Both the position numbers and the translations under genes were made by a program. Shown piece by piece: positions 15,533-64,000 of a stretch of DNA of 64,000 nt; the stretch's first letter is position 1; every line of letters begins with the position of its first letter. This DNA is from Deinococcales bacterium (GTDB lineage: Bacteria; Deinococcota; Deinococci; Deinococcales; JAAFIG01). Under the pieces are notes generated by a model. The model worked only from the letters and a program-made list of their open reading frames with translations. It ran no database searches and was not told the origin of the DNA. The stretch covers positions 25,238-89,237 of the forward strand of contig JAYWGM010000048.1 in NCBI GenBank assembly GCA_043778225.1, read 5' to 3'.

Positions 15533-15969
15533 TACGGTAATCGTGCCAAAACGAACCGAAAGGAATTCACCTATGCAGCATACCGCAACTAAATTACTCG
15601 AGCTAACCCAAGCCAATCTCAACTAGGACATCCGAAGACAACGTTTCATCATTGCTTTCGTCCTCGCTTTAATTGCAGTACGAACCGTCAATCTGACCCA
15701 AATAGCTGTTCACATGAACGCAAGTCAGTCAAAGCTAATGTACCGTACAATCCAACGTTTTTTCTTGATCCCAACACGCACTTGACGGGCGGGATCGCTT
15801 TCAGAGTTTTCGTCCTGATAGTCACGCTTTCCTCAAATTTCTACTATCCCTACTACCAGATGAACCATTGACCTTAATCATGAACCGAACCAACTGGGAT
15901 TACGGCAAGATTCACATTAACTACTTGGTGATTGGTGTTCTTTACCAAAGCACAGTCATACCCTTTTGA
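15533..15969 (+). pseudogene. Decayed IS4-family (IS10/ISAba1-like) transposase 5' fragment
   Basis: ATG 15573, stop 15624; LIAVRTVNLTQIA..YRTIQRFF; frameshifted LIMNRTNWDYGKIHINYLVIGV..IPF (first catalytic D appears as N); truncated. Confidence 0.8.
15763..15798 (-). mobile_element. Micro-element copy (36 bp) inserted in the IS remnant
   Basis: Reverse complement GCGATCCCGCCCGTCAAGTGCGTGTTGGGATCAAGA; removal restores IQRFFSEF. Confidence 0.85.
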
Positions 15970-25174: not shown

Positions 25175-25846
25175 TCACCCTACCGTACTCGGGTCAATCC
25201 AACCGCGTTTAATCCCGAACAGCACGGCTTCAGTTCTCGAGCCAACCCCGAGTTTAGAAAAAACATTTGCCAAGTGTACTTGGACTGTGCGCGGCGAAAT
25301 ATCCAAGACCTTGGCGATTTCTTTGTTGGTGCTGCCACTGGCGGCGGCGCGTAAAACCTCGAGTTCTCGAGGTGAAAGCCCTTCGCCGTCAAAGGCAACG
25401 GTCGGTTGTTGCGAAAACCGATTTAAGACTTTTTTGGCGATGCTGGGATGGAGCGCACTTTCACCATGAAAAACTGCCCGAATCGCGTTAATCAGTTCTT
25501 CTTCTCGAGCGTTTTTAAGAATGTACCCTGCTGCTCCAGCCTCGAGCAGCGCAAAGACGTAGGCATCGTCGTCAAAACTGGTTAAGACCAGCACTGCTAC
25601 ACTGGGATGGTGCTGTTTAATTTGCTTGGTCGCATCAATGCCGTTCATGCCGGGCATCGAGACATCCATTAAAATCACATCGGGGCGGGTGGCATTGACA
25701 AAAGCTAAGGCTTCGCGTCCATCGGCGGCTTCGCCAATCACCAGAAAATCGGCGTGAGGCTCGAGCATTTCTTTTGTGCCTTTGCGGACAATGGGATGGT
25801 CGTCTACCAATAAAATCTGGATTTGTCGTTCAATCATTTCTTCCAT
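25175..25846 (-). CDS. NarL/LuxR-family response regulator
   Basis: LVDDH, DVILMD, GYILK receiver; LSPRELEVL..NKEIA..TVQVH HTH; no adjacent kinase. Confidence 0.95.
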   Translation of the reverse strand: MEEMIERQIQILLVDDHPIVRKGTKEMLEPHADFLVIGEAADGREALAFVNATRPDVILMDVSMPGMNGIDATKQIKQHHPSVAVLVLTSFDDDAYVFALLEAGAAGYILKNAREEELINAIRAVFHGESALHPSIAKKVLNRFSQQPTVAFDGEGLSPRELEVLRAAASGSTNKEIAKVLDISPRTVQVHLANVFSKLGVGSRTEAVLFGIKRGWIDPSTVG

Positions 25847-50893: not shown

Positions 50894-50929
50894 TCTTGCT
50901 CATAAGATAGCACCTCACGGGCTACTCGC
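50894..50929 (-). repeat. Degenerate micro-element copy
   Basis: Reverse complement GCGAGTAGCCCGTGAGGTGCTATCTTATGAGCAAGA. Confidence 0.55.
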
Positions 50930-50967
50930 GCTCACTTCGGCGTGAGATACATCGCCCTTACTCCTGT

Positions 50968-51005
50968 TCTTGACCCCAAAGCGCCACCTGACGGGGCTGG
51001 GTCGC
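50968..51005 (-). mobile_element. Micro-element copy (38 bp)
   Basis: Reverse complement GCGACCCAGCCCCGTCAGGTGGCGCTTTGGGGTCAAGA. Confidence 0.8.
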
Positions 51006-51107
51006 TTAGTCGGAAATGTTTTAGCAAAGAACTCTAAAACATTTCAGGGAGGTACTTAGTGGCAGTCACATAGAACCTTGGTGTGGCATTCGCTTAGAAT
51101 ATAGCGC

Positions 51108-52996: not shown

Positions 52997-53124
52997 AGGG
53001 TTAAAAGGTCAAAGGGTTAAAAGCGACCATGCCCGACAGGTGCGTGTTTATGGTCAAGAAGGTTAAAAGGTTAAAAGGTTAAAAAGTTAAAAGGTCAAAA
53101 GGTCAAAAGGTCAAAAGGTCAAAG
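52997..53124 (+). repeat. Octamer tandem array (GGTTAAAA/GGTCAAAA) interrupted by a micro-element
   Basis: About 11 octamer units; insert at 53023-53059. Confidence 0.9.
53023..53059 (+). mobile_element. Micro-element copy (37 bp)
   Basis: GCGACCATGCCCGACAGGTGCGTGTTTATGGTCAAGA. Confidence 0.88.
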
Positions 53125-63042: not shown

Positions 63043-63079
63043 AGGGTTAAAAGGGGAAAAGGTCAAAAGGGGAAAAGTT
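63043..63079 (+). repeat. Octamer array
   Basis: gggttaaaaggggaaaaggtcaaaaggggaaaag. Confidence 0.7.
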
Positions 63080-63085
63080 TTGTGG

Positions 63086-63562
63086 CTAACTTCTTGGGTT
63101 TGGTGGGGTGCTTGGACTCGAGGGGGTGCTTGGCGTGCTTGGCGTACTTGGCGTACTTGGCGTGCTTGGATTTAAGGGAATCAGTTCTTGTCCTTGACCG
63201 GGTTGTCCGGGCTGATTGCCTTGCCCTTGACCGGGCTGCTGTCCGGGTTGTTGTCCGGGGCGCGGAAAAGTAAAGAGTTGTCCATCTTGATAAATTTGCA
63301 CTGGGCAATCTGCGGGGGCTTGTCCTTGTCCGGGCTGAGGTTGTTGCCCCTGTCCTTGACCGGGCTGTTGACCATTTGGACCAAGCGGGATTAACTCTCG
63401 GGAGTCGTTGGGGGCTGGAGCTTGTGGGGTAGGGGCTTGTACCAACTGGATTTTAATTGGTACTCGAGCCTCGAGTTGCGTATTGGGTGTGCTGACCCGA
63501 CCCAGAAAAAAGCCAGCGCTTAAAAGCGCCACGGCAGCCGCGAGCAAACCAAGTGATTTCAT
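63086..63562 (-). CDS. Membrane-anchored low-complexity protein (QPGQG and PST repeats), first gene of the MoxR operon
   Basis: N-terminal hydrophobic helix; duplicated ELIPL; 9-bp tandem repeats; ATG 7 nt after TACAAT. Confidence 0.75.
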   Translation of the reverse strand: MKSLGLLAAAVALLSAGFFLGRVSTPNTQLEARVPIKIQLVQAPTPQAPAPNDSRELIPLGPNGQQPGQGQGQQPQPGQGQAPADCPVQIYQDGQLFTFPRPGQQPGQQPGQGQGNQPGQPGQGQELIPLNPSTPSTPSTPSTPSTPSSPSTPPNPRS

Positions 63563-63680
63563 GCCACCTATTGTAGCGCCTTTGGTGTGAAGGAATTGAA
63601 AAGAAAATGACAGTTTTATTCACACAAACTTCAAAAACACGATGCTCTGGTCATGATTCAAGACTCTGCAAAACACACCC

Positions 63681-63905
63681 TAGTGGGTCATTCGACACGG
63701 AGAAAAGAGGAAAGAGGAAGCGACCATGCCCGTGAGCGACCCAGCCCGTGAGCGACCATGCCCGTGAGGTGCGTCTTTAGGGTCAAGACAGGTGCGTCTT
63801 TAGGGTCAAGACAGATGCGTGTATATGGTCAAGAAAGAGGAAAAATGTGCTGTACGCTATTCTCGAGATAACTCAAAGATACTATGCAAATCGAATGACC
63901 CACTA
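63681..63905. mobile_element. MITE-like element, family B, with perfect 15-bp TIR, containing a heptamer array and a triple-nested micro-element
   Basis: TAGTGGGTCATTCGA (63681-95) / TCGAATGACCCACTA (63891-905). Confidence 0.75.
63720..63834 (+). mobile_element. Three micro-element copies nested inside one another
   Basis: Left halves 63720-35 and 63736-51, full copy 63752-88, right halves 63789-811 and 63812-34. Confidence 0.88.
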
Positions 63906-64000
63906 AGTATCTCCCGCCTGTCTTGACCATAAACACGCACCTGACGGGCATGGTCGCGCATTTTAGATTTTTCACAAAACGGCAAATCTGTTCTTGCTCG
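63904..64000. mobile_element. Second copy of MITE family A (truncated by the window) with a micro-element at 63921-63957
   Basis: Matches 50844-50901 apart from a 37-38 bp insert (reverse complement GCGACCATGCCCGTCAGGTGCGTGTTTATGGTCAAGA). Confidence 0.8.

Follow-up and report, generated by a model that had tools for sequence, protein, structure and literature searches.

A self-nested 38-nt hairpin repeat in an uncultured family of Deinococcales and an IS110-family element at the same point of its loop

The window analysed here, a 64,000-nt stretch that constitutes the final 64 kb of contig C48 in the assembly of a Deinococcales bacterium (4.03 Mb in 107 contigs, 48.7% G+C), contains at positions 63719-63835 a stack of six half-elements, in which three 16-nt left halves (L) are followed by three 23-nt right halves (R). 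Most likely, this stack represents three copies of a mobile element of about 38 nt, each integrated in the same direction into the loop of the previous copy at an AG dinucleotide. Such a sequential, orientation-specific integration into the own loop had been proposed in the initial annotation of this DNA, and it is supported mainly by evidence from beyond the window, namely the coupling of L and R copy numbers, the co-orientation of nested units and the presence of cognate stems. The window locus alone is the weakest example of nesting, given its non-cognate inner pair and identical halves. The unit is a self-nesting hairpin repeat of an already described type, and what is new is its occurrence in a family of Deinococcales and a lead to an IS110-type enzyme.

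The nested stack and its counterparts in the genome and the family

The unit comprises about 38 nt (37-39) and reads AG-C, a stem of 6-7 nt, GCCCGT-N-AG-GTGC, 3 nt, a T-rich stretch, the complementary stem and AAGA-(N). Its hairpin is reflected in covariation of the stem, since among 73 distinct units 334 of 438 positions are Watson-Crick paired, as compared to a shuffle mean of 254.9 and a shuffle maximum of 279, with several pair types seen at 4/6 stem positions. In the window stack, the left half is laid out as AGC, a 6-nt stem, GCCCGT and G, and the right half as AG[G/A]TGC, 3 nt, a T-rich stretch, the 6-nt complementary stem, AAGA and N. The order L-L-L-R-R-R, as initially described, was recovered from the sequence, from a direct-repeat search in which the halves of the stack form families D1/D2, and by Tandem Repeats Finder (TRF), which when applied to the window reports period 16 x3.1 and period 23 x3.0 at the stack. 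The features of the locus, including the enclosing repeat that resembles a MITE (a miniature transposable element with inverted repeats), are as follows.

63681..63905, + strand: MITE-like 225-bp repeat enclosing the whole stack, with a perfect 15-bp inverted repeat (63681-63695 / 63891-63905)
63700..63719, + strand: heptamer array GAGGAAA x2.9, landing site of the outermost unit (tandem-repeat scan)
63719..63734, + strand: L1 of the outermost level, with stem GACCAT (sequence, repeat families, TRF)
63735..63750, + strand: L2 of the middle level, with stem GACCCA (sequence, repeat families, TRF)
63751..63766, + strand: L3 of the innermost level, with stem GACCAT and the same sequence as L1 (sequence, repeat families, TRF)
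63767..63789, + strand: R1 of the innermost level, with the same sequence as R2; its stem AGGGTC is non-cognate to L3
63790..63812, + strand: R2 of the middle level, whose stem AGGGTC is cognate to L2
63813..63835, + strand: R3 of the outermost level, an AGATGC variant whose stem ATGGTC is cognate to L1

The stems of the outer level (GACCAT/ATGGTC) pair at 6/6 positions and those of the middle level (GACCCA/AGGGTC) at 5/6, in agreement with the assignment of stems to nesting levels made at first, which however left out the non-cognate innermost pair. Taken together, L2 (GACCCA) and R2 (GCGTCTTTAGGGTC) correspond to a real subfamily unit, which is present elsewhere, on C58. The 15-bp terminal inverted repeat reported around the stack is indeed perfect, and the heptamer array is present as well, but it is short, with 2.9 copies of GAGGAAA and about one further copy downstream of the stack at 63833-63843.

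For a genome-wide view, the genome was tokenised into L and R halves and adjacent same-strand halves were chained into words. This yielded 132 units in balanced chains and 17 nested chains in a genome with 122 loop junctions, the 121 chains being distributed as LR (80), LLRR (11), LRLR (5), LLLRRR (3), LRR (3), LLR (1), LLRRR (1) and LRLRLR (1), in addition to a few complex or chance words. Bracket-like balance was found in 22 of the 35 words with at least three halves, and within words of the type L^aR^b the number of R halves follows that of L halves (table 80/3/1/15, Fisher p 5.9e-14). Expansions of L only or R only, the pattern that according to the initial annotation would speak for slippage, are rare and account for 5/99 such words. 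All 20 L-L junctions are co-oriented and 0 are inverted. Pairing of stems by level, measured at 22 loci, amounted to 270 as compared to a permuted mean of 239.9 and a permuted maximum of 269 (0/10000). In several stacks each level has a stem subfamily of its own, such as on C42, where GACCAT/ATGGTC surrounds GCCCC/GGGGT, which in turn surrounds GATTCC/GGAATC, or on C101, where GACCCT/AGGGTC surrounds GACCAC/GTGGTC around GACCCA/AGGGTC. Nests whose levels differ in stem subfamily cannot be produced by local duplication, while insertion from elsewhere can produce them.

The same organisation extends to the uncultured Deinococcales family to which this genome belongs, whose members are all but one represented by draft genomes with 57-94% completeness. 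The loop junction is present in 19/19 genomes of this family, with 1 to 318 occurrences per genome and 0 for a reversed-pattern control, whereas 120 other genomes of the order gave 0-3 matches to the loop junction each, which corresponds to the control level. Consistently, a pattern scan over one genome per prokaryote species returned the unit almost only in metagenome-assembled genomes of Deinococcales among the matches listed. The words from other genomes among these matches (at least 122 loci) include at least 18 LLRR, at least 9 LLLRRR, at least one LLLLRRRR and many complex balanced words, and for the at least 46 nested or tandem loci listed from other family genomes stem pairing by level is even clearer than in this genome, with 683 paired positions where permutation gave 502.9 on average and at most 577 (0/10000). 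More than ten stem subfamilies of the unit exist in the family, and its nests reach four levels, often with a different stem subfamily per level.

Assembly of the locus itself was examined with Logan contigs from two runs of one study, runs that are possibly the source of this assembly; the contigs were built with a different assembler. Positions 63200-63788 are covered in both runs with 0 differences, and 63759-63886 (run X1) and 63790-63886 (run X2) are likewise covered with 0 differences at single-copy depth; the misassembly against which the initial annotation had cautioned was not seen over the stack. It is scarcely credible that the stack is an artefact of assembling a repeat-rich region 165 bases from the contig end. 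The contig does terminate in a multi-copy composite repeat, 27/102 chains lie at contig edges, so that the units break short-read assemblies, and no single Logan contig spans the full stack, but an independent assembler returned the same letters from two runs at single-copy depth, and equivalent stacks are found within long contigs of this genome and of 18 others. A search of read-run contigs for other alleles gave one joint that skips 85 nt; it stems from a run belonging to a different study, shows low likeness and is probably the unit of another organism.

Insertion point, landing sites and history of the locus

In nested copies AG stands at the start of the insert and again where the host sequence resumes, as in GCCCGT-N-[AG CGACC...AAGA(N)]-AG-GTGC, and hence the crossover can be placed only within 2-3 nt, the admissible parses being GCCCGT^N, N^AG and AG^G. 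The claim of one insertion point at both levels of the window stack therefore stands, but the placement GCCCGT^CAGG is only one of several parses. Similarly, the AG of the loop is constant in nests throughout the genome, except for two units that instead lie at an AGG of the right stem of the host unit. Outside own loops, AG occurs within one base after AAGA(N) in 53/96 chains, mostly as AGG, as compared to a background of 5.4% per position, and the presence of AG on both sides of the insert in these chains fits a 2-nt duplication as well as a recombination core. Since 19/132 units are situated directly in the loop of a host unit and 79,626 AGG sites exist genome-wide, the own loop is by estimate favoured about 100-fold per site over a generic AGG.

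Apart from the own loop, units are found inside other hairpin families, within a second MITE-like repeat and close to short-period arrays. As many as 10/102 chains lie at most 15 nt from one of the 253 arrays of period 7 or 8, as compared to 0.5% of random windows, which corresponds to a 20-fold enrichment of such arrays beside units, and the array sequence resembles the right end of the unit (GGTCAAGA). Genome-wide these arrays are mostly octamers (AAAAGGTT, AAAAAGGT, AAAAGGTC) and not heptamers, an example in the window being 53010-53075. Units are also central in two or more palindromic repeat families, GGACAGACAC..GGGTCTGTCC and GTAGGGGCGAGGC..GCCTCGCCC, and the composite forms of palindrome and unit are multi-copy, for example at G000 C13:~7049, C52:~66282, C77:~17391 and C94:~102151, with further examples at C15:5398, C30:34490 and C66:~15546.

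Taken in sequence, the outermost copy of the window stack would first have landed in the A/G-rich short-period array within the MITE-like repeat, and each further copy would have integrated co-oriented at the AG of GCCCGT-N-AG-GTGC, leaving AG on either side. The MITE would later have been copied, carrying at least two levels of the stack along. Two paralogues of the 225-bp MITE on C32 bear on this history. The first (C32:11109-11248) contains no unit and only the A/G-rich array, reading ..GAGGA-AG-GAGAAAAG.. at the site of the stack, while the second (C32:~25680-25830), which is 5' truncated, contains a two-level stack with the unusual AGATGC outer right half, as in R3 of the window. This shared variant implies that at least two levels are older than the copying of the MITE and were carried passively. 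In an alignment, the window exceeds the two-level copy by one contiguous L+R of 39 nt. A series of alleles with one, two and three units was not found among six relatives (70-79% identity), all of which lack the MITE at the orthologous spot.

Several observations weigh against a simple succession of insertions. In the window, the innermost stems (L3 GACCAT, R1 AGGGTC) match at 5/6 positions and are not cognate, and halves are duplicated, with L1 identical to L3 and R1 to R2. The inner left half of the two-level C32 copy (GATCGT) is nearer to L3 than to L2, and this copy as a whole is closest to the outer and inner units of the window, not to the outer and middle ones, from which it follows that the window and C32 copies are not one clean insertion apart. 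Because of the non-cognate inner pair and the identities L1=L3 and R1=R2, at least one extra event is needed, be it conversion, slippage or a chimeric donor; units of chimeric make-up are present, as on C77, and can arise from deletions of the LRR type. Genome-wide, the unbalanced words (LRR 3, LLR 1, LLRRR 1) together with an orphan R on C1 mean that slippage or deletion acts too. A single-base target duplication is unsupported, with N = N' in 8/19 cases. In folding calculations the unit hairpin is weak as single-stranded DNA (-5.0 kcal/mol, z -0.74, with 44/200 shuffles as good), and the whole stack folds no better than shuffles (z +0.69), so thermodynamics lends no support to the hairpin and covariation is its sole support.

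That the stack was built in place without any integration, through separate tandem expansions of the 16-nt L and the 23-nt R by slippage or unequal exchange, is nevertheless very improbable. The identical halves and the non-cognate inner pair, the unbalanced words, and the whole-unit tandem arrays LRLR (5) and LRLRLR (1), which show that slippage-type events occur, would all fit such an origin. However, the arrangement L(A)-L(B)-L(A) followed by R(B)-R(B)-R(A) would take at least three separate events coinciding at 3+3, the numbers of L and R are coupled genome-wide, each level elsewhere has its own stem subfamily with matching halves, as on C42, and L2 with R2 is a real unit known from C58. 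The initial view of slippage as an inadequate account is thus borne out by loci other than the window.

Two subfamilies, GCGAGTA/TACGAGC and GCGAACA/TGTGAGC (8 + 8 of the 73 distinct units), hold tandem G-A/A-G oppositions in the middle of the stem, which points to a constraint on the single-stranded form. Neither the unit nor the leader of the insertion sequence (IS) described below matches an Rfam family, the only two matches being to snoRNAs at chance level.

The IS110-family element in the loop and candidate movers of the units

Integration by three successive copies would call for an enzyme acting in trans, and from the pattern of integration we infer a site-specific recombinase whose strand exchange would take place at a core of 2 nt, AG on one strand and CT on its complement. 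The active integration enzyme of the initial annotation is retained to this extent, with an IS110-type recombinase as the best candidate. The candidate comes from a stack on C26, in which the LLL and RRR blocks are parted by a 1164-bp insert between GCCCGTA-AG and AG-GTGC, which places it in the loop of the innermost of three nested levels.

G000 C26:30445-31608 (locus L001 646-1809), outside the window: IS110-family element, 1164 bp

The insert encodes a 336-aa IS110-family transposase (PF01548 3.3e-23, PF02371 4.2e-18), with the DEDD (RuvC-like) and Transposase_20 domains both present. Homologues of this IS occur in 7/18 family genomes by protein search, and in 10/19, including this one, when an RNA model is added. 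All copies of the IS sit in the loop of a unit, with the transposase antisense to the unit. Where the left flank has at least 20 nt, it ends in 11/11 cases with the complement of the right half of the unit plus CT, and the right flank in 8/8 cases starts with CT-(N)-ACGGGC..GGTCGC, which is the left half of the unit.

The leader of the IS, of about 190 nt, folds well (z -4.0), and a consensus fold of 10 copies has 18 pairs, 6 of which show compensatory changes, and consists of a 13-bp stem, an internal loop of 11+11 nt and an inner hairpin of 5 bp. The 5' side of the internal loop holds ..GCACCT, corresponding to the left target and core, and its 3' side, next to the inner hairpin, is the complement of the core and the right target. 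In 8/8 copies this 3'-side guide tracks the loop variant that the copy occupies, with five variants represented.

This genome: CCGTAAG
L130: CCGTTAG
L131: CCGATAG
L132, L133, L135: CCCGAAG
L134, L136: CCGTCAG

The same guide layout, with the CT core within both pairings, is described for the bridge RNA of IS621 (PMC11208160), and the match of the leader layout and target guide to this pattern makes the C26 IS a further IS110 element with a bridge RNA, aimed at the loop of the unit. A putative donor-loop guide (ACGGCTGC) shows by eye an 8-nt identity to the right end of the IS, in a second domain whose fold is unconserved between copies and which in most relatives is interrupted by insertions of units.

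These insertions into the bridge-RNA gene involve units of two subfamilies at one and the same CT, CCGAACGG-CT-GCCTGAACC, and are found at L131-L136, L142 and L168 (G005, G009, G012, G013, G015, G016), sometimes with 2-3 units in tandem. Four lineages, among them this genome, G002 and G004, have nothing inserted there. IS copies that bear a unit inside their bridge-RNA gene have nonetheless multiplied. A second, divergent IS110 lineage was observed in G003 (L158, L164, L169, L172, L174); its left end reads TGTATATT.., its guide matches GCCTCGCCC-CT, and its copies are located at the 3' foot of hairpins belonging to a further repeat family, GGGGCGAGGC..GCCTCGCCCC. The target hairpin of one G003 copy already holds a unit in its loop.

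Since the resident IS enters this very loop at the AG used by the units, always in one orientation and with a guide tracking the variant, a DEDD recombinase of the IS110 type with its bridge RNA is the best candidate for moving the units, albeit a tentative one that is rather unlikely to be right. The unit and the C26 IS share the target motif, the AG/CT core, the relative polarity and the 2-nt flank signature. According to two preprints, IS110 elements form single-stranded circles, transfer the top strand and undergo 'half-match' recombination. Single-stranded circles would make a 38-nt hairpin physically conceivable as a substrate, and half-match recombination might explain those insertions at sites that share only ..ACCT. 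Mobilisation of a small non-autonomous, non-coding module by an IS110-family transposase has been reported (PMC12288879). Carried one step further, the units would be the smallest known passengers of IS110 bridge recombinases, copied out as single-stranded hairpin circles and homing to themselves, which is an unlikely proposal. The circles would be pasted at a CT core wherever the target loop of the bridge RNA directs; a target loop programmed to the 13-nt loop motif of the unit itself would cause self-homing and hence Russian dolls, and half-matched sites (..ACCT in AAAAGGTN arrays) would yield the remaining insertions.

A number of results count against the IS110 element as the mover. The C26 IS is single-copy in this genome, and no IS was detected in element-rich genomes with 265, 195 and 121 loop junctions, these being incomplete drafts. 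The ends of the IS are not significantly alike to those of 57 distinct units in local alignment, with shuffles as good in 51/300 cases for the right end and in 289/300 for the left, and the apparent likeness of the right end of the IS (CTTGAC..AACACG) to the right half of the unit was dropped for this reason. The putative donor-loop guide fits the end of the IS and not that of the unit, the left donor matching by eye at 4/7 positions. Two other IS110 lineages in the family have no units at their ends, a search with covariance model R1 returned only more IS copies and one divergent G003 lineage but no free-standing bridge-RNA gene, and permuted (R-L) units were not seen.

Insertion of the units by some other enzyme, be it host recombination or repair or a transposase that is lost or unassembled, with the IS110 element merely using the abundant loop as a safe site, in the way that IS621 and ISPpu10 use repetitive extragenic palindromes, has somewhat less than an even chance of being correct. 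This would agree with IS ends unrelated to unit ends, a donor guide that fits the IS alone and element-rich genomes without a detected IS110, as well as with the second G003 lineage, whose target is the foot of hairpins of another family. It would also agree with the published pattern, including a reference to Tobes and Pareja, of IS110 elements that target repeated stem-loops without moving them. Left unexplained, however, are the AG, the motif, the relative orientation and the 2-nt flank signature that the unit and the IS have in common, and no alternative enzyme was found.

Among specific alternatives, transposition of the unit as single-stranded DNA by a HUH (Y1) transposase of the IS200/IS605 kind or of the kind associated with repetitive extragenic palindromes (REPs), i.e. 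a REP-associated tyrosine transposase (RAYT), which would insert 3' of ..CCT on the bottom strand, is very unlikely and less likely than a mover of the IS110 type. A hairpin with covarying stems, strictly one-way insertions, a short conserved word adjoining the insertion point, units located also within other hairpin families and one IS605 (tnpA + tnpB) in the genome are what such an enzyme would lead one to expect. But the sole Y1 gene here belongs to this ordinary IS605, with no unit at its ends or flanks, none of the 12 Y1 loci examined of 30 fetched from the family is flanked by units, and AG on both sides of the insert is not a product of the Y1 mode of transposition. In addition, the chains, which were built from same-strand halves only, lack the doublet organisation typical of REP sequences forming hairpins (REPINs).

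Related repeats, further units and other observations

The spread through bacterial genomes of repeats only a few dozen bases long is a question of long standing, for which a RAYT transposase has been proposed in the case of REPs, while we know of no mover for the smaller self-nesting repeats. The closest known kind to the unit are the small dispersed repeats (SDRs) of Nostoc punctiforme and relatives, likened here by description and not by sequence. Elhai et al. are said to have described in 2008 the repeats SDR1-8 as tiny hairpin repeats of 21-27 nt with compensatory stem changes, which reportedly are embedded in short-period (heptamer) arrays and in mini-transposons and are in some cases self-nested; to our knowledge, no mover of Nostoc SDRs has been described. 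Like SDRs, the unit is shorter than 100 nt, many-copy, self-nested and tied to short arrays and mini-transposons, with a covarying hairpin. Unlike them, it is found in Deinococcota, in one uncultured family, has 37-39 nt as compared to 21-27 nt, and possesses a conserved 13-nt loop that acts as self-target, with an IS110 bridge-RNA element at the same point. Precise insertion of SDR5 into HIP1 is described in PMC4390886, and PMC2884548 treats SDRs as possibly mobile repeats of about 20 bp; a literature search gave no usable text on nested SDRs.

REPs, the bacterial interspersed mosaic elements (BIMEs) and REPINs are short extragenic palindromes with hundreds of copies, which serve as IS110 targets and have been proposed to be non-autonomous mobile DNA (PMC3116915, PMC3733652). 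The unit is similarly short, has hundreds of copies and is an IS110 target. It differs in that no RAYT-like gene is flanked by units (the Y1 gene of this genome and 12 family Y1 loci), and in being a single hairpin with a long 19-nt loop, nested in the loop rather than arranged side by side in doublets or mosaics.

IS621, ISPpu10 and their kin home into repeated stem-loops, as stated in PMC11208160 and bioRxiv 10.64898/2026.03.19.712850. The C26 IS resembles them in having both Pfam domains, a structured RNA at its 5' end, a CT core and a repeated hairpin as target; it differs in targeting the loop of the hairpin, in a guide that has diversified with five loop variants, and in that the repeat itself has inserted into the bridge-RNA gene, at one CT and from two subfamilies. 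For ssr9 of ISPpu9, PMC12288879 describes a non-coding module that shares the end boxes of the IS and forms detected circles. It is a precedent for a small non-coding module using an IS110-family transposase, whereas the 38-nt unit has no significant similarity of its ends to the C26 IS. In Deinococcus radiodurans, hundreds of small non-coding repeats (SNRs) of 'unusual, mosaic structure' and with no known function are described in PMC1978522; these belong to the same phylum and are likewise small and non-coding, a likeness by description only, and the motif of the unit is not above chance in the 120 other genomes of the order.

With hundreds of copies per genome, stem subfamilies that serve as barcodes, nests up to four deep, a strict polarity and a fixed crossover, the family provides a clean natural record which argues that very small DNA can be mobile, and the IS110 element at the crossover is a first, testable lead to the kind of enzyme. 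If the units were indeed passengers of IS110, a mechanism would be at hand for the unexplained self-nesting micro-repeats of cyanobacteria. Even without moving the units, the IS110 element is a case of a bridge RNA reprogrammed in nature to follow the variants of a repeated target, and of a repeat that has invaded the bridge-RNA gene itself.

In addition to the stack, the window contains the following single units.

63921..63958, - strand: single uninterrupted unit with an empty loop (GCCCGT-C-AGGTGC), within the multi-copy composite repeat at the contig end
57869..57906, + strand: single unit, GACCCA subfamily
53022..53059, + strand: single unit inside an GGTTAAAA octamer array
50894..51006, - strand: two single units 36 nt apart, GCGAGTA (50894-50932) and GACCCAG (50968-51006)
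15763..15799, - strand: single unit, GATCCC/GGGATC subfamily

A role of the unit as terminator was considered and is without support, because its orientation relative to genes is unbiased (25 same, 19 opposite) and convergent spacers are not enriched, both based on crude gene calls.

The composite repeat at the contig end (63906-64000) consists of two units of different subfamilies around a conserved spacer of about 33 nt (..cagatttgccgttttgtgaaaaatctaaaatgc..), and it also occurs at the termini of contigs C27, C53 and C105. Overlapping tandem repeats with periods 8, 9, 12 and 27 occupy 63045-63260, in the 5' part of a minus-strand gene starting at ~63562 whose product looks like a secreted low-complexity protein. 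In terms of overall composition, CTCGAG occurs 24,877 times in 4.03 Mb (389 in the window) as compared to a mean hexamer count of 984 and is hence a hyper-abundant palindrome comparable to HIP1, which itself is rare in this genome. The scarcity of HIP1 and the near restriction of the unit to Deinococcales among the matches listed speak against a cyanobacterial origin, to which heptamers and nesting could point. GGCC-containing hexamers are extremely rare (GGCCCG 14, GGCCTC 12 and CGGCCG 7 in 4 Mb), which suggests avoidance of a GGCC-type restriction site.

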